DNA of 64,000 nucleotides from Patescibacteria group bacterium (GTDB lineage Bacteria > Patescibacteriota > Patescibacteriia > JACRDY01): NCBI GenBank assembly GCA_041650515.1, contig JBAZLA010000001.1, positions 82,710-146,709 on the forward strand. The letters are read 5' to 3'. Under the pieces are notes generated by a model, which was given only the letters and a program-made list of their open reading frames with translations, was not told the DNA's origin and ran no database searches. Numbering within the stretch: position 1 is the first letter of the stretch; every line of letters starts with the position of its first letter. Below, one piece after another: positions 7,236 to 63,305 of the stretch. The position numbers and the translations under genes are program-made.

Positions 7236-7539
7236 CCTCGGCTACCTTAATCGCAGTTTTATCTAGACGCAATAATAGTTGTGGTGCGAACTGTAAATCG
7301 ATTTCTTCTGCCAATAGTCGCCGCAACTCTCGATAGTTACCTCGGACTAAACCATAAGCCACGCCAGTAGCGGCGGTCGGAGTGACGGTCAGCCAAATCT
7401 TGGCATATTTCAAATCCGCCGAAGTTTCAACTTTAACTACGGTTATCAAAACGTTTTTGGGTAATTCAATCTCGCGGATGATAATTTCACCCAGCTTTTG
7501 ACGAATCAGCTCGCTAACTTGTTCAGTTCGTTTAGACAT
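7189..7539 (-). CDS. rbfA: Ribosome-binding factor A
   Basis: RbfA-like sequence (MSKRTEQVSELIRQ...ITVVKVETSADLKYAKIW). The frame extends at the C-terminus and overlaps nrnA; the true stop may be earlier. Confidence 0.7.
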   Translation of the reverse strand: MSKRTEQVSELIRQKLGEIIIREIELPKNVLITVVKVETSADLKYAKIWLTVTPTAATGVAYGLVRGNYRELRRLLAEEIDLQFAPQLLLRLDKTAIKVAEVEQLLQEIKAEKETE

Positions 7540-22251: not shown

Positions 22252-22355
22252 TCCATGATGCCTGGTAGGGGCGGCTCTAGAGCCGCCCCTACTTTTGATA
22301 ATAAAAAAAGGCGGAAGTGGGGTTTACCCTCTCCCGCCAGCCGTTATAAAACGGC

Positions 22356-35298: not shown

Positions 35299-35640
35299 TG
35301 GTTTCCTCCTTGGTTATCACATTTCGACCACCTGAAATCAAACTCTCAAGCCATTGCTGGCTCAATTATCCGACTCCGCCTAAAAAACCCGGAAAAAAGT
35401 AGCCCTATTTACTCTTTTCCCGCTCTTTTAGGTACTAATTGAGAGCGTTGAATAATTATGAAACGCTCTCATCCTGAGCAAAGCGAAGGATCTCTTACGG
35501 TTTGACTACCACGATAATCACTTAGCTCGGTATGAGATAATTAAATCATTCAATAGTTAAAATTAGGAACTTTAGACCTTAACATATTTTCCATTATCTG
35601 TCAACAATTCTCTTTGCCCAAGGAAAATATTACCATCTTC

Positions 35641-35720
35641 CTCCCCTTACCAAGGGGAGGGTTGGGGTGGGGTCGTCCCTCCCCTTACCAAGGGGAGGGC
35701 AGGGTGGGGTTGCCGGGGAA
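35641..35720. repeat. Tandem direct repeat, 2 x 40 bp, each with hairpin ctcccc-ttaccaa-ggggag
   Basis: cctccccttaccaaggggagggttggggtggggtcgtc repeated twice, then the terminator-like ggccgggaaactgatcggcc. Confidence 0.6.
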
Positions 35721-41869: not shown

Positions 41870-42652
41870 TTAATCTTGTTTTTCGCGATAAACTTTTTCG
41901 ATGGCTCTAAAAGAACGTGAATTAAACGGCTTAAACTCATAATCTTCTGCTAACCAAGCCGGGCGAGCAAGATTATCGGGTGCGTCAGGTATATTCAACC
42001 GAGCTAAACTTGCCTGATACCTAGTCTCTACACCATGACGATAATCAACCATTAAACCAACTAAGGCTTTTCTCAACTCATCAAAGTTATTGCCACTAAA
42101 CAATTGCTCAATTGCTTGATAGGTATCCTTAACTGCTGGAATATCCAAATATTTTTGAAACTCTTCTGGCCTAAGTATATAACAAGCGATCAAATCCGCT
42201 TGATACTGGCAACCCGGTCCGCTAGATGGCAAAAGCTCTTTCCCATCCTGATGGGCAATACTAGCCAACTGATCCTCGAGAGAATGCCCGACTTCATGAA
42301 AAAAACAATCCGGTAATTCGTTACCATCCCAATAATCCATATTAATCGTCACCATGTCAAAATCAATCTGCATATCCGGTCGTCGAGGAGTATTACCGCC
42401 TGGGTTATAGCTATCGTTATGGTCCAACCAAACTTTAACCGGGTGATCCAAAAATGGCGCTAAGTGATCAGCCATTTTGGTAAAAAGCGCCCGTGTCTCT
42501 GGCTGATTATGATATTCCTTAAAACGCAGCTCGGCCTGACCGTTCTGATAGACTGATGCCTCTCCTTGCTCTGGGGCCTTGGCCTGATCGCTACCACCTC
42601 GGGCCTCAGGGTGAAAGAATCGACCAAACAATCCTCGTCCTGCTTCGCGCAT
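41870..42652 (-). CDS. Putative zinc metallopeptidase (HExxH)
   Basis: FFHEVGHSLED motif. Start codon uncertain (no clear Shine-Dalgarno sequence). Moderately GC-rich. Confidence 0.45.
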   Translation of the reverse strand: MREAGRGLFGRFFHPEARGGSDQAKAPEQGEASVYQNGQAELRFKEYHNQPETRALFTKMADHLAPFLDHPVKVWLDHNDSYNPGGNTPRRPDMQIDFDMVTINMDYWDGNELPDCFFHEVGHSLEDQLASIAHQDGKELLPSSGPGCQYQADLIACYILRPEEFQKYLDIPAVKDTYQAIEQLFSGNNFDELRKALVGLMVDYRHGVETRYQASLARLNIPDAPDNLARPAWLAEDYEFKPFNSRSFRAIEKVYREKQD

Positions 42653-42764
42653 ATCTTATATTATTTTAGTAATAGCTATTTTAGCAGACTTTTAAAAAAA
42701 ATCAACTCAGTTGACAGAATAAGTGATTAATCTACAATAACAACAATCCAAGGAGGTTTTAGTT

Positions 42765-43100
42765 ATGAATGCCGGTATTGAAAATCCGGAAATATATCTC
42801 GCGTTGTTGCGAGCTACGGCTAATGCGCAAATTCTATACAATCGGGCGGTCTTCTGCCTGATGCACCACGCCTGTAGCCACAGCCACCAACCAAAATTAG
42901 AAACTCCCATGATGGCTTTTGCCGATCTCTGGCAAACTGCCAACACTACGCTCCGGCGGCAAAAAGCTCGAGAGTTTCTACAAGCCGCCACCCGGCTCGA
43001 ACTCGGCTGGGTCTGGCCGGATCAACCGACCGAGGAAGAACCAACCGAGAGGCAACTGGCCGATGCTTTCGCCAATCTGCTTAAGCATCTCAATCATTAG
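42765..43100 (+). CDS. Hypothetical protein (111 aa), GC-rich island
   Basis: AAGGAGGTTTTAGTT-ATG, with a terminator gacccatccgggtc followed by a T8 run downstream. Confidence 0.5.
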   Translation: MNAGIENPEIYLALLRATANAQILYNRAVFCLMHHACSHSHQPKLETPMMAFADLWQTANTTLRRQKAREFLQAATRLELGWVWPDQPTEEEPTERQLADAFANLLKHLNH

Positions 43101-43293
43101 ACCCATCCGGGTCTTTTTTTATACCCCTACGAATTTTTATCATGTCATTGCGAGCGTAGCCCCCGACCCGTGTGTCGGGGGCGGAGCGAGTCGAAGGATA
43201 GTTTATAAAAAAGACCCGGAAGAAAGAGCCCCAATGGGTTTTCTCCGGGTGGCGAATCTTTACGATCCGCTAGTTTTCAGTTGTCCGTGTGCT

Positions 43294-43728
43294 TCAGCAG
43301 TTGAGCACGGTGACGATCCCCACGGAGGAGTTGAAGCCCAGGCTGGACAGGTAGCTTTCGTCCACGGCGGCGACTTCCTCACGGATTTCCTTCGAATTGA
43401 CGTCGTTCTCGTTGACGGCAATATCGTTGGAAACGCACTCCGTTCCTTGATCCATCGGCGCGACGTCGTTGTTCGCATCCTTCGACTGTGCGGCGGTGAT
43501 CACGTTGACCAGGGAAGCGGGCGGCGACACATCAACGGTCGCCGAGAGATTGGGCGCCGCGTAGTTCGCAGCCAACCCGAAGATAATCGCCTGATGGTTC
43601 GCAACGACGGCCGGAGTCTCATCGGTGGCCTCGTTCGCGACCTGAACCGGAGCGGCCTGCGCGACGGTCAGCCCGACCATCAGCACCGCCAAACAACACA
43701 ACGCAATGCACAAAAACAGTTTTCTCAT
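43294..43728 (-). CDS. Secreted hypothetical protein (signal peptide), GC-rich island
   Basis: AAAGGAGAAGAACCG-ATG and an N-terminal signal peptide (MRKLFLCIALCCLAVLMVGLTVAQA). Confidence 0.5.
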   Translation of the reverse strand: MRKLFLCIALCCLAVLMVGLTVAQAAPVQVANEATDETPAVVANHQAIIFGLAANYAAPNLSATVDVSPPASLVNVITAAQSKDANNDVAPMDQGTECVSNDIAVNENDVNSKEIREEVAAVDESYLSSLGFNSSVGIVTVLNC

Positions 43729-44168
43729 CGGTTCTTCTCCTTTTCGAAGAATTTTTGCCCCACCCTGGCTGATTGAAACCCTAGGGTTCCGAATCTGATA
43801 CCAAAGCGGTGCGCCTCCTGATTACCCTAGCAATCCCCTACCGATCGATCCAAATTAACCAAACTAGCTGTCATGGGGGTTGACTACTTCCCACTGACTA
43901 GCTCCCAAGGGTTAGTTGGGTCTCATGCTTGTTGAGGGATAACAGATCTAGTGCTAGTCTGGCTAGCAGTTTGATCAATCGTGATCGAATCGGTTTTGAA
44001 GGTTGCTTTTGGGTTATCATAATAATACTAATTTTATTTTTATTTAGCAAATAAAAAATTGCTTCGGCCGCCGGTAACCAATTGACAGAATGATTTATAA
44101 ATAATAAAGTGAGTTATTCGGTCTAATTTTGGAATTTGGAATTTTCAACTTTCTTGGAGGGCAGTAAA

Positions 44169-44645
44169 ATGACGACCTTTTCATCTTTAGTTGACTCTTT
44201 GGTTGGCTCGGTGGTGGGCACCAAGTCGTTTGGTATGGCCGTGGCGGATCTGTTGGCCTACCTGGCCAAAATGCAGCCGCTGCAGGATCCCAAACAACAG
44301 CGGTTGCTGCAGGCCGCCGAAGCATCCTTCCGCGACGCACCAGCAATGAAACCCTGGCTCGCCTGCGTCGCAACTTGGCAAATTCTCGAGGATATTTTCA
44401 CCGAATTGGCTGACACCCAATCAGCCTTTGAGGATTCGCACCCTGGCTCCGAAGAAGAGACCAGGGTAGATCAAGTCACCAGTGATCTATCAGATGTCCT
44501 GAACGATCTACACGATCTAAAGGGGATCGACGATCTCCAAGACGACCAACTAATGGCCGAGGAGGTTCGCCGCTTGACTCACAAATGTTTCCTGGCGATC
44601 AACGCCTGGCTGGAAATCATGGGTTGGTTACCTCAGGAGGGATAA
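44169..44645 (+). CDS. Hypothetical acidic protein (paralog pair member 1)
   Basis: TGGAGGGCAGTAAA-ATG. Followed by terminator gagggtaaccatcccctc-T7, which is nearly identical to the one after 44751..45197. Confidence 0.5.
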   Translation: MTTFSSLVDSLVGSVVGTKSFGMAVADLLAYLAKMQPLQDPKQQRLLQAAEASFRDAPAMKPWLACVATWQILEDIFTELADTQSAFEDSHPGSEEETRVDQVTSDLSDVLNDLHDLKGIDDLQDDQLMAEEVRRLTHKCFLAINAWLEIMGWLPQEG

Positions 44646-44750
44646 CCAACCGACGTCACAACCCCGAGGGTAACCATCCCCTCTTTTTTTATTGACAAAT
44701 CACTAAAAATAATATTAGATAAGCATAACTTTAACTGCGAGGTCACGAGA

Positions 44751-45197
44751 ATGGAAGAAGGGTTTAGCCGGTTACTCAATACCCTGCGGCAATCCGCCGC
44801 CGCACTCGAGCGCAGGGACGCGCTTATGGAGATCATGGGAATATTCCAACGCTTGGAAATATTCCAATCCTGCCAGAACTTATTGGCAGGACTCATAGCG
44901 TGTTTTGGTCTCTGTCCCCGACTACCGGGACTTGGCCAGCGGCTGTTTCTCCGCCACCTCTTCGTGGCACTCAGCCAGCACCTCGGCACCGAGGTCCAAA
45001 AGCGGGAAGCGGCAACCCCGCCGACCTGGGAAGAACCAGCGGGCTACCCCGATATGGTGGTCGCCCTCACCAAGGCCATGCAGGTCCTGGAAAAGGATGC
45101 CAACCTGGAAACCATCCACGGAGCAGCCGCAGACGGCTTTGCCGCTCTGTTCCAATGGCTCGGTTGGCTCGGAGCCTTTTCCGGCACAACAGACTGA
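44751..45197 (+). CDS. Hypothetical protein (paralog pair member 2)
   Basis: Followed by gagggtacccactccctc-T7 terminator, a duplicate of the upstream one. Weak Shine-Dalgarno sequence. Confidence 0.4.
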   Translation: MEEGFSRLLNTLRQSAAALERRDALMEIMGIFQRLEIFQSCQNLLAGLIACFGLCPRLPGLGQRLFLRHLFVALSQHLGTEVQKREAATPPTWEEPAGYPDMVVALTKAMQVLEKDANLETIHGAAADGFAALFQWLGWLGAFSGTTD

Positions 45198-45350
45198 CTA
45201 GCACCACGTTGCTGGCCAGCGAGGGTACCCACTCCCTCTTTTTTTATTGCTAAACGACGCAGGTTATATAACCTAAATTTATTTTACGACACAAAATCTA
45301 ATTTAAATATAAACAAATAATCAAATAACCAGCAGAAATTATCAACCAAT

Positions 45351-45400
45351 TGTTCCACGTGGAACATTCCGTAGGGGCAGGTCGCGACCTGCCCCTACGG
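45351..45400. promoter_or_regulatory. Perfect palindromes: TGTTCCACGTGGAACA (16 bp) + ccgtaggggcaggtcgcgacctgcccctacgg (32 bp)
   Basis: The first palindrome recurs at 47355-47372. Candidate operator/recombination site upstream of the cupin-like pair. Confidence 0.45.
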
Positions 45401-45459
45401 ATTTGACATCCACCAACCGATGTCCTAAAGTTAAAAATCAACCCAGGAGGATTTTCAAA

Positions 45460-45852
45460 ATGTTTAAACGGGAAGTTTTTCTCAAAGAAAAGTTGGCTGG
45501 CTGTCAGCCAACTGATCTGAGGATCTATTACTCTGGCGGGATTGTCAGCGCCCACATGAGCAAAGACAACCGCCGCTTCAGCCACGGGGCAGTCACCAGC
45601 CTCATGCCGGAATATGAGATTGAGGTCGGGGAGAAAGAAACCGTGGTTGTCCTGAAAGGGACTCTCAAGGTTCGCTTTCTTCACAAGAACGCTCCGGCGG
45701 ATGAGCCACGCTTTGACGAACGCTGGACCAAGGTCCATACCGGCGAAACCGTGGTCTTCGAAGCCGGAACTGGCGTCATTCTCGCCTGCGATCAGGAAGA
45801 GCCAGTCGAATTCTGGTGCGAATACGGCGACGCGCCAACCAACTCGGAGTAA
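45460..45852 (+). CDS. Small beta-barrel (cupin-like?) protein, paralog 1
   Basis: CAGGAGGATTTTCAAA-ATG. Shares GTL.IRF ... K.H.G..V...AG..V motifs with the 45968 gene. Followed by a terminator. Confidence 0.5.
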   Translation: MFKREVFLKEKLAGCQPTDLRIYYSGGIVSAHMSKDNRRFSHGAVTSLMPEYEIEVGEKETVVVLKGTLKVRFLHKNAPADEPRFDERWTKVHTGETVVFEAGTGVILACDQEEPVEFWCEYGDAPTNSE

Positions 45853-45967
45853 ACCCTTTTCTGGTAAACTCCACCTACCCCCCCCCACCTCGTGGGGTTT
45901 TTTATTTCTATTGACATTAAAGCTATTAAAAATTAAAGTTAAATTAACAAATAGGAGGTTGCAAAAA

Positions 45968-46354
45968 ATGGGAAGTTTCTTGGATCCAGAAATAAACACC
46001 AAGCCGGAAATTAAGAACAACGGTGGACTAATTAAAGTCTACTACTTCAATCAGTCTCAGTGTTATTTAGGGATCGTGACAGGGGGAGCTGAATATCAGT
46101 ACACCCCGGATAAAGATGAACCCATCGAAGTCACGGTCGGAACTCTTCAAATTCGCTTCCCACTAAAATACCCTAAACCACGTCAGTACCCGTGGTGCCA
46201 AAGGCTCCGAAAATACCACGTCGGCCAGAGAGTTACACTTCAAGCTGGCGTAACTGTCTGCCTATCAACGCTGGAACTTTCAGGAGCCGCTTTCAATGCC
46301 CATATTGGGCCCTATCCAACCATCGTCAAAGAGGATGGGCCTCAAAAGGGCTAA
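45968..46354 (+). CDS. Small beta-barrel (cupin-like?) protein, paralog 2
   Basis: TAGGAGGTTGCAAAAA-ATG. Paralog of 45460..45852. Followed by terminator atcccccatcgggga-T7. Confidence 0.5.
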   Translation: MGSFLDPEINTKPEIKNNGGLIKVYYFNQSQCYLGIVTGGAEYQYTPDKDEPIEVTVGTLQIRFPLKYPKPRQYPWCQRLRKYHVGQRVTLQAGVTVCLSTLELSGAAFNAHIGPYPTIVKEDGPQKG

Positions 46355-46485
46355 ATATAGGCAAATATCCCCCATCGGGGATTTTTTTATTCCCTCCCCC
46401 TGCTAAGGGGGAGGTGGCCGCAGGCCGGAGGGGGTCTTTGGGGTGGGAGGAGTATCAAAAAACACCCCATTTCTAGAGTGATCTT

Positions 46486-46562
46486 TGGTGGGCGTAAGTG
46501 GGCTCGAACCACTGACCTCTGCAATGTGAATGCAGCGCTCTAACCAGCTGAGCTATACGCCC
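46486..46562 (-). tRNA. tRNA-Val (anticodon CAC), CCA encoded
   Basis: Acceptor gggcgta/tacgccc. Anticodon loop uUCACau. T-arm agtggTTCGAGCccact. Confidence 0.85.
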
Positions 46563-46823
46563 TTATTTATCGTCTTTTTTAATTGCTTTGCTTAAATAAA
46601 CTGTAACTAAAACCACTACTACAGTTATTACTACAGCATAAATAAACTTCGCTACTAGCGAACCACCATTTTCTAAAGGAAAAATATAGTCAATCAGACC
46701 CTTAATTGCTTCGTTCCAGGCTAAACCCGCAACTAAGCCAAAAGCCGCAATAACATAGCTCAAGGTCCGCTGGCGGATCTCCTGCCTCAAATTTGGATCT
46801 TTTGGTGCTTGTTCTTCAGCCAT
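46563..46823 (-). CDS. Small membrane protein (about 86 aa)
   Basis: Start MAEEQAPK... The upstream part of the tracked ORF overlaps tRNA-Ala. C-terminal transmembrane segment. Confidence 0.35.
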   Translation of the reverse strand: MAEEQAPKDPNLRQEIRQRTLSYVIAAFGLVAGLAWNEAIKGLIDYIFPLENGGSLVAKFIYAVVITVVVVLVTVYLSKAIKKDDK

Positions 46824-46845
46824 AAATTTTTGTTCAGCGCTTTTT

Positions 46846-46919
46846 TGGACTCGAGGGGGATCGAACCCCTGATCTCCGCAATGCGAATGCGGCGCTCTAC
46901 CAACTGAGCTACGAGCCCT
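46846..46919 (-). tRNA. tRNA-Ala (anticodon CGC)
   Basis: G3:U70. Anticodon loop uUCGCau. T-arm aggggTTCGATCcccct. Confidence 0.85.
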
Positions 46920-47023
46920 CAAAAAGAGCTAAACAGATTAATAATTAAATACTCGGGCATTGTCTCCGCCTTACCACTAGAAATGACCACAAATCTGGCC
47001 TTAAGCTTATCCAACTCGTCTAA

Positions 47024-47095
47024 CGTCCCCGATAGGAATTGAACCTATATCTAGGGCTTAGGAGTCCCTTGTTCTATCCGTTGAACTACGGGGAC
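47024..47095 (-). tRNA. tRNA-Arg (anticodon CCU)
   Basis: Acceptor gtccccg/cggggac. Anticodon loop cUCCUaa with one A:G mismatch at the stem base. T-arm ataggTTCAATTcctat. Confidence 0.75.
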
Positions 47096-47107
47096 ATCAG
47101 GCGAATT

Positions 47108-47151
47108 GGGCTTAGGAGTCCCTTGTTCTATCCGTTGAACTATTGGGGCAT
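47108..47151 (-). pseudogene. tRNA-Arg(CCU) 5'-half duplicate (fragment)
   Basis: Copies acceptor-5', D-arm and anticodon arm of the adjacent gene. Flanked by inverted ggcgaat/attcgcc. Confidence 0.7.
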
Positions 47152-47215
47152 ATTCGCCTCTATGAGGAATGAAATCCTTCGCTCCGCTCAGGACGGAGCC
47201 TACTTATTTTCTTAC

Positions 47216-47264
47216 CGCCCCCATGAGGAATCCCACCCTCACGGGTGGTGGCCCGTTAGGGCCA
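47216..47264 (-). repeat. tRNA-Arg(CCG) 3'-end duplicate (cgcccccatgaggaatc) + double mini-hairpin module
   Basis: 17-nt copy of the tRNA 3' end, followed by ccaccc-tcac-gggtgg and tggccc-gtta-gggcca hairpins. Confidence 0.7.
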
Positions 47265-47278
47265 GAACCTTAAATATC

Positions 47279-47350
47279 CGCCCCCATGAGGAATCGAACC
47301 TCAATTTTGGGATCCGGAATCCCACGTCCTATCCATTAAACGATGAGGGC
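47279..47350 (-). tRNA. tRNA-Arg (anticodon CCG)
   Basis: Acceptor gccctca/tgggggc (one G:U pair). Anticodon loop uUCCGga with G37. T-arm tgaggTTCGATTcctca. Confidence 0.8.
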
Positions 47351-47548
47351 CGAGTTGTTCCACGTGGAACAATTTGTATGGAAAATTCATGAATTGCCAA
47401 TGCACAAACTAAGTTTTTGTTTATAATTAGATTAAATCTAGCGTCGTAAAATTATTTAATCTACTTTTTAAATAATTTTAATCTAATTTTGGCTAAACAA
47501 ATTATTAGTGGTATAATTCTAGCTGATAATTAATAGAAAATCAATTTT

Positions 47549-50732: not shown

Positions 50733-52409
50733 ATGCCTAAATGTTTAATCTGCCAATCTAACTTTACCATCGAGCCTGACGACCGGATTTTTTATCAAAA
50801 AATCAATGTACCCGAGCCGGTCGAGTGCCCAGCTTGCCGCCAGCAGCTGCGCCTTTGTTGGCGTTGCGAACGCAGCCTGCACTTCCGACCCTGCGACCTT
50901 TGTGGTAGACAGCATATGTCTAGCTATGGTGCTCACACTACCTTTCCGGTTTATTGCCTAGACTGTTGGTATGGCGACAGCTGGAATCAACTTCAAAACG
51001 GCCGCGATTTTGACTTCTCTCGCCCGTTTTTTGAACAATGGGGTGAACTCCAAAAAATATCAGCTCGACCGAGCCTTTTTATTACTCAAGGTACGGTTTT
51101 TAACAGCGACTATTGTAACGCCGTCACGGCGATTAAAAACTGCTACCTGGTTTTTAGCGCTTTTGAATGCGAAGATTGTTATTATTCCAGCTTTATTCGC
51201 GAATCGTATAATCTTTTTGATTGCACTGAGGTATATTCGTCTGAACGATGTTACGATTGCATCAATTGCGACCAATGTTATGGCGTAATTGCTAGCGATA
51301 ACTGCAAAGTCTGCCGCGACTCGGCTTTTCTCTGGGATTGCCACGGCTGCAGTGACTGTTTGTTGTGTACCAATCTACGTAATCAAAAATTCTGTATCAA
51401 TAACCAGCAACTAACCGAAGCCGACTATCGCGCCAAAAGAGCCCAGATTGATCTGCGGTCCAAAACAATCTATGACCAGAGCACTCAAAAATTAAAGGAG
51501 CTCAAAAAACAAGCGATTCATAAATACTGCCAAGGATTTAATAATATTAATTGCTCTGGCGATTATTTGACTCGCTGTAAAAATTCTAAATACGCCTATG
51601 ACTGCTTCGAAAATGAGGATTGCAAATACGTCACCCGGCTTAATAGCGGCAAAGATTGTTTTGATGTCGACCATTTTGGCTCAGATGGAATAGAGCTAGT
51701 CTACTATACTGCCAGTTCTGGCACCCGCTCGTTTAATAATAAGTTCTGCAACCAAGTCTGGAGCACTGTCCAGAATATGGAATACTGCGATATGTGTCAG
51801 AACGGCTCGCATGACTGTTTCGGCTGCGCCTGTCTAAATAAAAAGCAATATTGCATCCTCAATAAACAATACTCACCAGAAGAATACGCCAAGCTTAAAG
51901 AAAAAATAATCGCCCACATGCGCCAAACCCCGTATAACGGAACGGGGCAAGCCGGTGAATATGGCCGTTTTTTCCCGCCCCACCTTTCCCACGTTCCTTA
52001 TACTGATTCATTTGCGCAAGACTATTACCCACTAACTAAGGAAAAGGCGCTAAAACTTGGCTTTCGCTGGGAAGACGATGACTCTAAATACCAACCCGCT
52101 TCCTGCCCATTGCCAGATGATTTGAATGAAATCAAGAATGATATTACCAAAGAAATTTTAGTCTGCACCAACTGCGGCAAGAATTACAAAATCATTAGTC
52201 AGGAATTGGAGTTTTATAAAACCCTCAATCTGCCCCTACCCGACCAATGTTTTAACTGCCGACTACTGGTTCGTTTGGCTCGCAAAAATCCCCGCGTACT
52301 CTATGATCATACCTGTTCTAAATGCGGCAAGATGCTAAAAACTACTTATTCTCCAAACCGGCCAGAAAAAGTTTATTGTGAAGAGTGTTATCAGAAGGAA
52401 ATATATTAA
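50733..52409 (+). CDS. Cysteine-rich repeat protein, tandem paralog A (558 aa)
   Basis: N- and C-terminal zinc-ribbon pairs (CxxC...CxxC). Internal repeats have the form xCxxCxxSxxxx(N/D)C. C-terminus is VYCEECYQKEIY. Confidence 0.6.
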   Translation: MPKCLICQSNFTIEPDDRIFYQKINVPEPVECPACRQQLRLCWRCERSLHFRPCDLCGRQHMSSYGAHTTFPVYCLDCWYGDSWNQLQNGRDFDFSRPFFEQWGELQKISARPSLFITQGTVFNSDYCNAVTAIKNCYLVFSAFECEDCYYSSFIRESYNLFDCTEVYSSERCYDCINCDQCYGVIASDNCKVCRDSAFLWDCHGCSDCLLCTNLRNQKFCINNQQLTEADYRAKRAQIDLRSKTIYDQSTQKLKELKKQAIHKYCQGFNNINCSGDYLTRCKNSKYAYDCFENEDCKYVTRLNSGKDCFDVDHFGSDGIELVYYTASSGTRSFNNKFCNQVWSTVQNMEYCDMCQNGSHDCFGCACLNKKQYCILNKQYSPEEYAKLKEKIIAHMRQTPYNGTGQAGEYGRFFPPHLSHVPYTDSFAQDYYPLTKEKALKLGFRWEDDDSKYQPASCPLPDDLNEIKNDITKEILVCTNCGKNYKIISQELEFYKTLNLPLPDQCFNCRLLVRLARKNPRVLYDHTCSKCGKMLKTTYSPNRPEKVYCEECYQKEIY

Positions 52410-52553: not shown

Positions 52554-54212
52554 ATGCCCAATTGTAAAAACTGCCAACAAAATTTCACCATTACCGAGGC
52601 CGATCGGCAGTTTTATCGCAAAATGGAAGTGCCAGAACCAACTATGTGTTTTCCCTGCCGACTGCAAAACCTCATGGCCTATCGCAATGAGAGAGTTCTT
52701 TATCCAGCTATTTGTGGTCTGTGCAAAAAATCTATTCTCGCTGCTTATCCGCCGACCCATCCTACACCTATTTATTGCTATGAATGTTGGCACACGGATA
52801 AATGGGACTCTACCACTTATGGTCAAGATTATGATTCTGACCGATCATTTTTTGAGCAATATGAAAAACTGCAAAATACAGTACCGCCCTTTGCCTTATC
52901 GGTTTTTGGCAGTATCAACTCCGACTATACCAATTGCGCCTCTTGGAATAAAAACAGCTATTTGGTCTCCGGCGCTAATTATAACGAAGACGTACTGTAC
53001 GGCAACTACGTCAACTATGATAAATATTCTTTGGATATTTCTTTTACTCATAAATCTGAGCTTTGCTACGAGATTACCGACGGCGAAAACAATTACCATG
53101 TTCGTTTTGCTACTGATAGCTCTAATTGCTCCGACTGCTCCTTTATCCACGACTGCCGCAATTGCGTCGATTGTTTTTGTTGCACTAATCTGCGCAATGC
53201 TAAATATTGTATTCTCAATAAACCATATAATGAAGCAGACTACCGGAAAAAAATGGCAGCCATCGATCTGGGCAGCTACCAAACCGTGCAACAATATCTT
53301 GGGGAATTTAAACAGCTCAAACTGCTGGCAGTTTATCAATATTATCATGGCAGTAAAAACGAAAACTCAACCGGTGATTATTTTTACTATACCAAAGACT
53401 GCCATTATTGCTTCGACGCCACCGAAGTTGAGGGTTGCGCTTATTTACAATGGTTTCATAAAGCGCGAAATTGTTACGACATCTTGGCTTGGGGTTTTGG
53501 TGCGGAAAATTGCTATAGTGGAGTAGAAGTCGGTGACAACGTTACCTTTTTAAAATTTACCCGCACCTGCCGCACTGGCTCAAGTAATCTGGAATATTGC
53601 CAAAATTGCATCGGTTGCACCGATTGTTTTGGCTGTTACTGCATGCACAATGTCAAATATTGTATTTTAAATAAACAATATTTGGAAAAAGAATACCGAG
53701 AATTAAAAGAAAAAATTATTGCCAAAACGAAAAGTAGCGGCGAATACGGCGAGTTTTTTCCAACTAAATATTCTTATTTTGGCTATAATGAAACTATCGC
53801 CAATGACTATTTTCCTTTAACTCGCGAGGAAGTACTCAAACGCGGCTGGCACTGGCAGGATAAAATGCCCGGAATTTATGACAAAGGCACCTTAACCGCC
53901 GACCAATTACCAAACAATATTAAAGAAGTTGAGGATAATATCACTAAAGAGATTCTGGTTTGTGCTAGCTGTGGCAAAAATTACAAAATTACTCTAGCCG
54001 AATTAAAACTCTATAAACAGATTACTGTGCCCTTACCTCGGCAATGTTTTGATTGTCGGCATTTAGCTAGACTAAAACAAAGAAACCCCCGACAATTATG
54101 GCACCGCCAGTGCCTGCGTCCCGGCTGCAAAAATGAATTTGAAACCACTTATGCTCCCGATCGCTCGGAGAAAGTTTATTGTGAGGAGTGCTATCAAAAA
54201 GAGATCTACTGA
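52554..54212 (+). CDS. Cysteine-rich repeat protein, tandem paralog B (552 aa)
   Basis: Same architecture and termini (MPNCKNCQ... / ...VYCEECYQKEIY) as paralog A. Confidence 0.6.
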   Translation: MPNCKNCQQNFTITEADRQFYRKMEVPEPTMCFPCRLQNLMAYRNERVLYPAICGLCKKSILAAYPPTHPTPIYCYECWHTDKWDSTTYGQDYDSDRSFFEQYEKLQNTVPPFALSVFGSINSDYTNCASWNKNSYLVSGANYNEDVLYGNYVNYDKYSLDISFTHKSELCYEITDGENNYHVRFATDSSNCSDCSFIHDCRNCVDCFCCTNLRNAKYCILNKPYNEADYRKKMAAIDLGSYQTVQQYLGEFKQLKLLAVYQYYHGSKNENSTGDYFYYTKDCHYCFDATEVEGCAYLQWFHKARNCYDILAWGFGAENCYSGVEVGDNVTFLKFTRTCRTGSSNLEYCQNCIGCTDCFGCYCMHNVKYCILNKQYLEKEYRELKEKIIAKTKSSGEYGEFFPTKYSYFGYNETIANDYFPLTREEVLKRGWHWQDKMPGIYDKGTLTADQLPNNIKEVEDNITKEILVCASCGKNYKITLAELKLYKQITVPLPRQCFDCRHLARLKQRNPRQLWHRQCLRPGCKNEFETTYAPDRSEKVYCEECYQKEIY

Positions 54213-57789: not shown

Positions 57790-57941
57790 GGGTATATTTT
57801 ACCATTTCGGACCAAATAAAAAAACCGCCTAACTTCTCTAATTTGTCATCCTAAGCCCTTCGGAATGACAATTAAAAATACTTTATCCCTAACAACATTA
57901 AATTTTTCTAAACAAAAAATCACCCTTCAAGGTGGTTTGGA

Positions 57942-57990
57942 GGCCAGGAGGGGATTTGTCTCCCTACGGGAGATCCCCCATAGGGGGACA
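57942..57990 (-). repeat. tRNA-Cys 3'-end duplicate (ggccaggaggggatttg) + double mini-hairpin module
   Basis: 17-nt identity to 58313-58329, followed by tctccc-tac-gggaga and tccccc-ata-ggggga hairpins. Confidence 0.7.
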
Positions 57991-57997
57991 CCCCTGA

Positions 57998-58279
57998 TTA
58001 TCCAACTGAGTGATTACCTATTCTTAATTTAATAATTTCTTTCTGCTGGCTATTGTGTTTCAACTCATATTCTCTTTTAGCAGCTACCAAATTACTAACA
58101 TAAGCCTCATAATAAACAAGAGCTAACGGCCTTTTGTCTTTTGTTGATTTTACTTCACCCTGATTATGTTTTAAAAAACGGGAACTCAAATCAGAAGAAT
58201 AGCCAATATATAACCACCTCGGATCTCTTATACTCTGTAGGGCATAGACATAAAACATGCCATAAGTATAAAAAACCAA
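57998..58279 (-). CDS. GIY-YIG nuclease domain protein (small, about 86-93 aa)
   Basis: FYVYAL...YIGYSSDL..R...H..G. Likely start is MFYVYAL at 58258. Confidence 0.7.
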   Translation of the reverse strand: MVFYTYGMFYVYALQSIRDPRWLYIGYSSDLSSRFLKHNQGEVKSTKDKRPLALVYYEAYVSNLVAAKREYELKHNSQQKEIIKLRIGNHSVG

Positions 58280-58311: not shown

Positions 58312-58383
58312 AAGGCCAGGAGGGGATTTGCACCCCTGCATAGAGGTTTTGCAGACCTCTGCCTTACTACTTGGCTACCTGGC
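58312..58383 (-). tRNA. tRNA-Cys (anticodon GCA)
   Basis: Acceptor ggccagg/cctggcc. Anticodon loop cUGCAaa. T-arm aggggTGCAAATcccct. Confidence 0.8.
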
Positions 58384-58413
58384 CGAAAAAGAAAAAAAAA
58401 TTTAAACAATGAT

Positions 58414-58503
58414 CAGGTTTTGTCTCCCTACGGGAGATCCCCCACAGGGGGACAGACCTCTGCCTGGATTTTATCCGCCTTGGGCGGAACTTGGCTACCT
58501 GGC
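58414..58503 (-). pseudogene. Degenerate tRNA-Cys copy with insertions in D-loop and anticodon loop
   Basis: Shares ggccaggtagccaagt...aggcagaggtctg...caaaacct with the intact gene. There is a 30-nt double mini-hairpin inserted after anticodon position 34 and a hairpin ccgcccaaggcgg in the D-loop. The 3' half is missing. Confidence 0.6.
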
Positions 58504-58600
58504 CGAAATTATTAAATCTCACCCTATAATAACAAAACAACTATCAAAAATCAACCTTACTTTTTTATTATTACTCAAACAATATAGAATAATAAACCCA

Positions 58601-63118: not shown

Positions 63119-63168
63119 TGGAGCGGGTAATGGGAATCTCCCCCTACGGGGGATCACCCGTTAGGGTG
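63119..63168 (-). repeat. tRNA-Gly 3'-end duplicate (tggagcgggtaatgggaatc) + double mini-hairpin module
   Basis: 19/20 identity to 63231-63250, followed by tccccc-tac-ggggga and tcaccc-gtta-gggtga hairpins. Confidence 0.7.
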
Positions 63169-63230
63169 AGAACCCACCTTATCAGTTTACCGGCCCGCAT
63201 CTAAGAACTGGATAATTAGATCAATTTAGC

Positions 63231-63305
63231 TGGAGCGGGTAACGGGAATCGAACCCGTATTTTCAGTTTGGAAAACTGATGCACTAGCCGTTGTGCTATA
63301 CCCGC
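63231..63305 (-). tRNA. tRNA-Gly (anticodon UCC), CCA encoded
   Basis: Acceptor gcgggta/tacccgc. Anticodon loop uUUCCaa. T-arm acgggTTCGATTcccgt. Confidence 0.85.

Follow-up and report, generated by a model that had tools for sequence, protein, structure and literature searches.

Truncated tRNA copies interrupted by double hairpins in a Patescibacteria tRNA operon, probable relics of a nuclease-and-hairpin cassette system

How does a bacterial tRNA operon come to carry partial copies of its own tRNA genes? The question is raised by positions 46486-47372 of a 64,000-nucleotide stretch (hereafter, the window) of contig JBAZLA010000001.1 from a Patescibacteria group bacterium (assembly GCA_041650515.1, contig positions 82,710 to 146,709), where tRNA genes on the minus strand lie among fragments of two of them. 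An earlier reading of the letters (the original prediction) had ascribed these fragments to repeated integration and excision or to illegitimate recombination at this locus. Here, we argue that they are probably relics of a cassette system built from a small GIY-YIG nuclease gene, a replacement tRNA, and GC-rich double hairpins. The system is apparently a widespread and undescribed selfish element of Patescibacteria, and the literature searched contained no description of such an element in bacteria of the candidate phyla radiation (CPR).

The tRNA genes of the window were identified with ARAGORN and the Rfam tRNA model RF00005 (gathering threshold 29). ARAGORN found seven in the whole window, and the four of the cluster score 56-70 bits against the Rfam model, in agreement with the original prediction, which had placed Val-CAC, Ala-CGC, Arg-CCU, and Arg-CCG at these same coordinates. 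Partial copies were located by blasting the seven tRNAs against the window. At the Arg end of the cluster, the features are:

47279..47350, minus strand: intact tRNA-Arg(CCG), first gene of the operon (ARAGORN; RF00005, 56.2 bits)
47265..47274, minus strand: copy of the T-stem 5' strand plus TTC, left half of a pseudo-T-arm, TTTAAGGTTC against ATTGAGGTTC in the parent (8/10)
47233..47264, no strand assigned: dyad-symmetric double-hairpin element, TGGCCC-TAAC-GGGCCA CCACCC-GTGA-GGGTGG, between C56 and G57 of the pseudo-T-loop
47215..47232, minus strand: identical repeat of positions 57-73 of tRNA-Arg(CCG) (GATTCCTCATGGGGGCG) with the next G, forming the right half of the pseudo-T-arm and the acceptor 3' strand (17/17)
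47181..47199, no strand assigned: GC-rich hairpin standing alone, GCTCCG-(7 nt)-CGGAGC, with an Arg(CCG) 3'-end copy on either side
47154..47176, minus strand: degenerate further copy of T-arm and 3' end of tRNA-Arg(CCG), without a double hairpin (70% over 23 nt, 9-nt exact core)
47100..47158, minus strand: copy of tRNA-Arg(CCU) at 47108-47151, from 2 nt upstream of position 1 through position 42 (44 nt, 93%)
47023..47096, minus strand: intact tRNA-Arg(CCU) (ARAGORN; Rfam)

The 3' end of tRNA-Arg(CCG) is repeated at 47216-47232 over 17 nt with 100% identity (blastn-short E=2e-4), or over 23 nt at 91% in a wider alignment, and starts 46 nt after its parent, which leaves no space for an integrative element. 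The duplicate had been recognized from the start; what had been missed is that it belongs to a complete pseudo-T-arm split by a double hairpin, with TTTAAGGTTC, the double hairpin, and GATTCCTCATGGGGGCG following each other on the tRNA strand. This anatomy can be read off directly. The insertion is 32 nt long and consists of two perfect 6-bp hairpins; as single-stranded DNA it folds at -14.7 kcal/mol (z=-2.5), and 0 matches are expected in shuffles. For tRNA-Arg(CCU), positions 9-43 are repeated at 47108-47142 (35 nt, 100% identity, blastn-short E=3.7e-15), so that the duplicated 5' part is real as well, and the alignment of fragments to their parent tRNAs, proposed as the check, was significant for both Arg copies. 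The Arg(CCU) copy is bracketed, in the direct reading, by the 7-nt inverted repeat GGCGAAT (47100-47106) and ATTCGCC (47152-47158). The predicted fold closed by this repeat has z=-2.3, and the chance estimate for a 7-bp repeat within a 60-nt stretch is marginal (~0.08); the repeat noted earlier is thus present, but its significance alone barely exceeds chance. The acceptor strand of the copy, GCCCCAA, is like the alleles of relatives (GCCCCCG, GCCCCTG) and unlike that of the adjacent gene (GTCCCCG).

The third piece reported at this locus, around catgaggaat, exists with its 9-nt exact core but is weak, and the best reading is that of an older T-arm/3'-end copy that has degenerated (47154-47176). 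The plus-strand open reading frame (ORF) of 117 aa at 47039-47392 runs antisense to two tRNAs and their copies, and its peptide repeats (LRSPLFYPLNY twice, RPHEES twice) mirror the DNA duplications; thus, it was rightly dismissed as spurious. Two further candidates at the locus were rejected. In the flagged 2 kb, an Rfam scan (E up to 10) recovered nothing beyond the four tRNAs and chance matches, which removes a known RNA family, and the resemblance of GTTGGATAA, downstream of tRNA-Arg(CCU), to a decayed nuclease gene was unsupported by the six-frame profile search described below.

The fragmentation had been taken as particular to this locus, which does not hold, since at least four of the seven window tRNAs are affected and the pattern is spread across Patescibacteria. 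The window contains four double hairpins, each exactly in the tRNA-arm loop of a partial copy, and those in copies of tRNA-Cys and tRNA-Gly had also escaped notice:

58415..58504, minus strand: pseudo 5' part of tRNA-Cys, positions 1 to ~41, with a D-loop hairpin insertion (58466-58488) and a double hairpin (58423-58452) in the anticodon loop, G34/C35
58313..58384, minus strand: intact tRNA-Cys(GCA) with the unusual T-loop TGCAAAT, without encoded CCA
57998..58258, minus strand: stand-alone GIY-YIG nuclease gene, 86 aa, UPF0213 type, the only copy in the window (PF01541 E=1.1e-12; PDB 1zg2 E=4.9e-8)
57938..57996, minus strand: tRNA-Cys pseudo-T-arm, CAGGGGTG, double hairpin (57959-57988), CAAATCCCCTCCTGGCCT (18/18), and CCA, followed by a terminator
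63119..63178, minus strand: tRNA-Gly(UCC) pseudo-T-arm, GGTGGGTTC, double hairpin (63139-63169), and GATTCCCATTACCCGCTCCA

At the Cys locus, the nuclease gene sits between the intact tRNA-Cys and the interrupted 3' copy. As CCA and a terminator follow the interrupted copy and neither follows the intact gene, the downstream piece looks like the displaced original 3' end. The Gly pseudo-T-arm lies 93 nt downstream of the intact tRNA-Gly (63231-63305), and its stem is altered on both strands in comparison with the gene (ACGGG/CCCGT to GTGGG/CCCAT).

The recurrence of the double hairpin was assessed in a genome collection with a pattern in which only GGTTC, the CCC/GGG cores, and RANYCC were fixed and the outer stem bases were left free. 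It matched 56 loci, of which 21 have complementary free stem bases, the other 35 being GC-rich peptide-type repeats. Watson-Crick pairing at the free positions reaches 121/126 (96%) in the family and 97/246 (39%) in the other matches, and one stem position shows four different pair types among the 21 loci, so that recurrence and covariation of the hairpins are matters of observation. Almost all of these loci are labelled Patescibacteria, and a single-cell genome contributes seven of them; eight hairpin pairs were counted in one single-cell genome. The first hairpin has a T..C loop in 19/21 cases and the second a G..A loop in 18/21, which makes the element dyad-symmetric, alike on both strands. 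Similarity of hairpins within and between genomes was not used as a measure, given that dyad symmetry makes the orientation ambiguous. An intact tRNA on the same strand precedes the split T-arm in 19 of the 21 loci, with a gap of 12-55 nt between them (193 nt in one). The tRNAs concerned include Lys, Leu, Met, Thr, Ser, Arg, Asp, Glu, Gly, and Ala, with more than 12 identities overall. Post-hairpin sequence and positions 57-73 of the neighbouring tRNA are identical at 17 or more of 18 nt in 15 of the 18 cases that could be parsed. The left edge of the copies varies, from GGTTC alone to more than 13 nt, and the right edge can lie 2-8 nt inside the trailer. At several loci (window Cys, L011, and L032; loci are referred to by L numbers), CCA and the native flank are found with the downstream copy, and the intact gene has no CCA. 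The pseudo-T-stems are worn to 3 bp in several modules and have undergone compensatory changes in others (window Gly, L037).

A second scan with the hairpin consensus alone, without any flank requirement, yielded more than 120 stretches in metagenomes and no match in viral contigs. At one of these loci (L136), an unrelated stem-loop is present as one intact copy and one copy with hairpins in its loop. The left flanks of the hairpin pairs vary (TTC, GTG, CTG, TTTT, TAG, ATTA), with only a loose preference for T-rich|NA(A/T); insertion of the IS200/IS605 type, 3' of a fixed tetra- or pentanucleotide, was discarded accordingly. Simple target-site duplication was rejected because the flanks of hairpin pairs in tRNA loops are not direct repeats, as was an RNA-templated origin, in which the copy would end at the mature 3' end, because the duplication takes in 8, 6, and 2 nt of the trailer in L046, L035, and L001, respectively. 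The hairpins are not hypervariable either, since contigs with identical nuclease protein are 100% identical through them. As separate observations, L037 (7380-7790) has three tandem tRNA-Ile(GAU) copies with leader, the two upstream ones being pseudo-copies with near-identical flanks and different T-loop hairpin pairs, one of them with an extra D-loop insertion.

The nuclease gene was then followed through its own family. Its best solved relative is UPF0213 BH0048 (PDB 1zg2), a stand-alone domain. The 86 relatives listed span 79-130 aa, most of them 81-90 aa, and those with a named source are all from CPR lineages; phage relatives are distant only. Twelve nuclease genes were examined in their surroundings, namely the copy in the window, three met at other loci, and eight for which protein similarity (44% identity at the lowest) was the sole basis of selection. 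All 12 lie within 161 nt of a tRNA, and most are accompanied by truncated tRNA copies with hairpin pairs in D-, anticodon-, or T-loops. In several loci the nuclease start codon is found 12-25 nt past the hairpins. Among the matches listed for the hairpin consensus only (80 loci, 480 kb), 20 of 82 hairpin pairs are at most 140 nt from a GIY-YIG gene and 15 abut one, with such genes covering less than 2% of the 480 kb. The linkage of nuclease, tRNA, and hairpins is therefore observed directly. A viral origin of the system was considered and rejected, as no viral contig matched and the phage relatives of the nuclease are merely distant.

Complete elements show how these parts fit together. In L203, positions 1-34 of a tRNA-Cys are followed by a hairpin pair, then by a few target-like bases and the GIY-YIG gene; next come an intact tRNA-Cys of another sequence and again a few target-like bases, and a second hairpin pair, nearly identical to the first, leads into positions 35-76 with CCA. 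In the outer halves, the acceptor strands are complementary to each other (GGCCTAG/CTAGGCC) and the T-loop is canonical; the inner tRNA has another acceptor stem and the T-loop TGCAAAT. Since the outer halves are complementary to each other and unlike the inner tRNA, a foreign cassette has been inserted. When 423 bp were excised in silico from hairpin pair to hairpin pair, a tRNA-Cys callable by ARAGORN resulted, and excision of a 443-bp insert from the D-loop of a tRNA-Glu (L140) likewise gave tRNA-Glu; the full inserts are discrete units. The same exercise with the outer Arg(CCG) of L194 gave no callable tRNA when the inner tRNA was excised, the outer 5' half having a further D-loop insertion.

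Some observations on these loci stand on their own. The T-loop TGCAAAT (G at 55, no GTTC) occurs beside a GIY-YIG gene in the window (58313-58384), L057, and L203 (all tRNA-Cys), and in L201 (tRNA-Met), and the displaced outer tRNA-Cys of L203 has a canonical TTCGATT loop. It may represent a nuclease-resistant allele; contrary to this idea, L060 and L068 have canonical T-loops beside the nuclease gene. In L202 (1040-1200), a three-unit array of CATGGCC-GTG-GCCATG plus AATCCTTAAATGGTA lies between tRNA-Asp and a GIY-YIG gene; this is a hairpin of another kind, followed by a piece that resembles half a T-loop. An 'empty' palindrome, CCTGCCTGCCGGCAGGCAGG, related to the inverted repeats around the Arg tRNAs of L194 and L198/L199 (see below), is present in the pseudo-tRNA pieces of L015 and L020, and together they constitute a second palindromic junction element.

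The Arg locus itself was compared among relatives, defined as the closest available by RmuC (69-79% identical). The remaining genes of the operon are:

46846..46918, minus strand: intact tRNA-Ala(CGC), no fragment found beside it by blastn-short (ARAGORN; Rfam)
46563..46823, minus strand: small membrane protein gene, DUF5654, inside the tRNA operon (PF18898 E=3.8e-22)
46486..46562, minus strand: intact tRNA-Val(CAC), last gene of the operon (ARAGORN; Rfam)

A terminator-like hairpin with a U-tract follows tRNA-Val at 46463-46480. As it is the sole such site on the tRNA strand, the pseudo-tRNA modules lie inside the operon. The order DUF5654, tRNA cluster, RmuC, S20, holA, and the order of the tRNAs, are kept in all relatives compared, including the position of the DUF5654 gene in the tRNA operon. 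The fragments, in the three relatives compared, are lineage-specific. In L194 each Arg tRNA is flanked by imperfect inverted repeats of 16-19 nt and nested in a split outer pseudo-tRNA, and a T-loop hairpin module precedes tRNA-Ala; L198/L199 have a different, partly degenerate set, and L196 is almost clean. Thus, the idea of a recombination hotspot stands, given the same tRNA order with different fragments, and the integration and excision of integrative elements does not, for want of room and of a recombinase among the ORFs scanned at the locus and in view of the more than 12 tRNA identities. The leftover 3' end in L194 has the acceptor strand of the window's Arg(CCU) allele. Taken with the Arg(CCU) 5' copy of the window, which has the relatives' allele, this suggests that the Arg(CCU) pieces reflect allele replacement. 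As for the repeats themselves, those of L194 (minus strand of 1-1016) and L198/L199 are exemplified by CCCGCCTGCAACGCTAT ... TAGCATTGCGGGCAGG, and the Arg genes are in the anticodon loop of a pseudo-tRNA.

We consider it moderately probable that the tRNA fragments are relics of a nuclease-and-hairpin cassette system in Patescibacteria, for which the following course of events is proposed. A full element would measure ~420-445 bp and comprise two double hairpins with a GIY-YIG gene of 82-90 aa and an intact replacement tRNA between them; it would sit inside a loop (D, anticodon, or T) of a resident tRNA gene, which is left as truncated 5' and/or 3' pieces. The precedent of the phage nuclease SegB (see below), together with T-loop breaks of CPR loci in GGTTC|RAWTCC, underlies the proposal that the DNA of tRNA genes is broken by the nuclease within or close to loop motifs, for instance GTTC|RAWTC of the T-loop, a predicted specificity. 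Recombinational repair would then copy the cassette from an occupied allele (homing); alternatively, the nuclease could act in trans on other tRNA genes and produce short tandem duplications of the broken end. In either case, only outcomes with one intact tRNA would survive. Every loop of the leftover pieces would gain a double hairpin, by which the presumed cleavage motif is split and the homology between the repeats interrupted, so that the arrangement would be stabilized. At the Arg locus, we would be looking at ORF-less relics, with the Arg(CCG) T-arm and its hairpins next to an older decayed copy, and the Arg(CCU) 5' part derived from another allele. In this specific homing and cleavage mechanism, which we infer largely by analogy, our confidence is lower than in the relic reading. 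The double hairpin, for its part, could be a DNA-level recognition or recombination site, as fits its dyad symmetry and covariation, or it could be an independently mobile palindrome of the REP (repetitive extragenic palindrome) or GC-cluster type. It is conceivable, and in our view rather doubtful, that the 85-aa GIY-YIG protein and the double hairpin form a minimal autonomous mobile element that targets stem-loop structure, chiefly the three tRNA loops, and not sequence. Such an element would enter essential tRNA genes with a replacement tRNA, in some lineages with the maybe resistant T-loop TGCAAAT, and act as a drive or addiction system among the bacteria with the smallest genomes.

Several results weigh against the relic reading or against parts of it. 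The separate DNA-binding domain present in I-TevI and SegB was not found, the CPR nuclease being a catalytic domain only; without such a domain, and not being a SegB orthologue, it can be credited with sequence-specific cleavage only as a prediction. When the six frames of the window were searched with a profile of the family, the Cys-locus gene alone was matched, with no nuclease gene or remnant at the Arg locus, so that the link to the nuclease there rests on analogy with the Cys locus and other genomes. Some nuclease-tRNA junctions have no hairpins (L020, L201). Hairpin pairs also occur away from tRNAs, in AT-rich heptamer repeats, arrays, other stem-loops, and a 23S rRNA insertion, which means that the hairpin element may be mobile alone, and how it enters every loop stays unexplained by the model. 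Finally, the strain-level contigs compared are 100% identical across these regions, so that no ongoing movement was seen; a near-identical genome pair with and without the insert was not found among them. The hairpin pairs without a tRNA nearby comprise those between AT-rich tandem heptamers in L075, L076, L113, and L128 (CAATTTT, CAGTAAA, CGAATTA, CAATATT) and the arrays of L083 and L098, in which hairpin pairs are spaced 7-8 nt. The one in L145 lies at ~7400-7460 (minus strand) within the 23S rRNA gene insertion.

Two unrelated, coinciding processes might produce the same picture, tRNA genes being partly duplicated by ordinary slippage or by illegitimate recombination without the nuclease and the hairpin being a separate palindromic selfish element, comparable to REP/REPIN or to the GC clusters of organelles, that enters exposed T-rich loops and is tolerated only in dead copies, with the GIY-YIG gene as a passenger that has its own preference for tRNAs. 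This would account for the hairpin pairs at non-tRNA sites (heptamer repeats, other hairpin loops, arrays, the rRNA insertion), for nuclease junctions without hairpins, for two copies in the window that have no hairpin pair (the 5' copy of Arg(CCU) and the second one of Arg(CCG)), and for the near-identical flanks with different hairpins in L037, which suggest independent insertions. We nevertheless regard it as unlikely, considering that hairpin pairs abut the nuclease gene far above chance (15-20 of 82 among the matches listed), that complete elements are bounded by two near-identical hairpin pairs, and that the stem-loop of L136 suggests a coupling of duplication and hairpin insertion. A function under selection, with the pseudo-arms serving as processing, stability, or attenuation signals, insulators, or untranslated regions that control the nuclease, appears more improbable still. 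The covariation of the stems would fit it, as would the compensatory pseudo-T-stem changes (window Gly, L037), the 17-18-nt copy that is perfectly conserved while adjoining bases differ, the location of the modules inside a transcription unit, the full identity of strain-level contigs, and the nuclease start codon 12-25 nt past the hairpins in several loci. However, the element reads alike on either strand owing to its dyad symmetry, which speaks for DNA and not for RNA, and the hairpins are found in either position relative to genes and also in AT-rich repeats that do not look transcribed. Moreover, the pseudo-T-stems are worn to 3 bp in several modules, the orthologous locus differs among relatives and can be without modules, and comparable organellar hairpin elements have no known function (PMC2800124).

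The view implied by the original prediction, in which the fragments are attachment (att) site remnants of a phage, an integrative and conjugative element, or an island moved by a site-specific recombinase, has become very unlikely. The boundaries of the copies (T-stem to 3' end; 5' end to anticodon stem) do look like those of the identity blocks that integrase att sites form in tRNA genes, reportedly described by Williams in 2002, and a stretch of higher G+C content with poor ORFs lies between tRNA-Ala(GGC) and tRNA-Val. Against this, the copies are only 4-55 nt from their parents with no element between them and no insert of kilobase size, and neither a recombinase at the locus nor an ORF between the fragments was found in the part of the window ORFs that was scanned, the neighbours being DUF5654 and RmuC. 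D-loop breaks occur too, viral contigs gave no matches, and a tRNA-specific att site cannot explain a hairpin structure at more than 12 tRNA identities. An even smaller chance is given to the hairpin pairs being intron-like insertions in multi-intron or split tRNA genes missed by the finders. They do lie precisely in D-, anticodon-, and T-loops, and non-canonical archaeal tRNA introns sit in tRNA loops likewise. Yet an intact paralogue is adjacent in each case, the flanks have no bulge-helix-bulge by inspection, and no Rfam intron family was recovered in the flagged 2 kb. When 128 hairpin pairs were removed in silico, no true full-length tRNA was restored; introns are thereby excluded for the loci examined, and the hairpin-bearing pieces are genuinely truncated.

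Other features of the window deserve mention. The perfect 16-bp palindrome TGTTCCACGTGGAACA occurs at 47356-47371 and 45351-45366, two copies against 0.01 expected by chance. One copy is just upstream of tRNA-Arg(CCG), and the motif is also found ahead of the tRNA cluster in L194, L196, and L198; we take it for a probable operator or promoter element. A hairpin with a 15-bp stem (45368-45401) lies beside the copy at 45351-45366. Between tRNA-Ala(GGC) and tRNA-Val (~41870-46400), the G+C content is 49% against ~40% nearby, ORFs overlap on both strands, and most of them have no Pfam match; this stretch may be what is left of a foreign island after degradation. Two Cys-rich ORFs that adjoin each other and are paralogous, at 50733-52409 (558 aa) and 52554-54212 (552 aa), have similar N-termini (MPKCLICQSNFTI and MPNCKNCQQNFTI) and both end in KVYCEECYQKEIY. 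GC-rich hairpins with stems of at least 5 bp number 155 in the window and ~53 in shuffles (~3x). They include two downstream of tRNA-Val (46367-46414), twin CCTCCCCTT-ACC-AAGGGGAGG units 17 nt apart at 35640-35699, and one with a 12-bp stem at 22265-22292.

If the relic reading is true, CPR bacteria, whose genomes are minimal and whose tRNA genes are present in single copy, put up with a selfish element housed in tRNA genes that carries or regenerates a working tRNA copy, and the link between SegB-type nucleases and tRNAs extends from phages to bacterial chromosomes. The element would also be a bacterial counterpart to the unexplained double-hairpin and GC-cluster elements of organelles, with a very small nuclease whose recognition would depend on structure or on a short loop motif. 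In practical terms, spurious ORFs and pseudo-tRNA pieces arise from the modules, and pipelines that annotate CPR genomes should recognize them.

Compared with known systems, the locus shares with integrase att sites a direct repeat of the tRNA end beside an intact gene and differs from them by having no integrase and no kilobase-scale insert and by its many tRNA identities, hairpin junctions, and D-loop breaks. In REP/REPIN-RAYT systems, two inverted short palindromes likewise form a dyad-symmetric unit with many copies per genome, whereas REPINs are longer and neither loop-specific nor linked to tRNAs, and the partner here is a GIY-YIG nuclease instead of an HUH transposase. In fungal mitochondria, a homing-endonuclease cassette is said to carry a duplicated gene end, as reportedly described for Allomyces atp6 by Paquin et al. 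in 1994. Such cassettes supply the replaced end and leave the old one downstream, as at the tRNA-Cys of the window, where the new 3' end is followed by the nuclease and by the old 3' end with CCA and terminator; their hosts, however, are protein genes, and here a tRNA gene is concerned, the replacement is possibly a whole foreign tRNA, and hairpins lie at the junctions.

Hairpin mini-elements of organelles, namely the double hairpins of chytrid mitochondrial DNA, the GC clusters of yeast mitochondria, and the hairpin-forming elements of sponges, are suspected to be mobile and are found in intergenic and variable rRNA regions with no known function (PMC2800124; PMC4478555). By architecture they are alike, being short GC-rich palindromes in AT-rich genomes, often two adjacent hairpins with conserved stems and variable loops, and the CPR element is such a GC-rich two-hairpin unit with many dispersed copies (four in the window, >120 metagenome stretches). 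The known examples are organellar, and neither siting in the tRNA loops of truncated copies nor a nuclease-plus-tRNA cassette has been reported for them.

The free-standing GIY-YIG homing endonuclease SegB of phages T4/T6 is likewise encoded in a tRNA cluster (PMC2330249; PMC13096335). SegB of T6 cuts inside tRNA genes at RAWTSGAAC, is able to act in trans, and is associated with tRNAs of all isotypes; its nuclease activity, together with homologous recombination, is needed for tandem tRNA+segB repeats with microhomology junctions (PMC13096335). Unlike this phage protein with its added DNA-binding region, the CPR protein is chromosomal, a putative nuclease consisting of a UPF0213 catalytic domain of 82-90 aa, and double hairpins or truncated tRNA pieces with filled loops have not been reported for SegB loci. 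In both systems a GIY-YIG gene adjoins tRNAs with no isotype preference, and the CPR loci have the corresponding catalytic-domain ORF (57998-58258 in the window) beside or within tRNA genes in 12/12 cases. The SegB motif is, by our reading, the reverse complement of the T-loop sequence GTTCSAWTY, which is the place of the T-loop breaks in CPR genomes.

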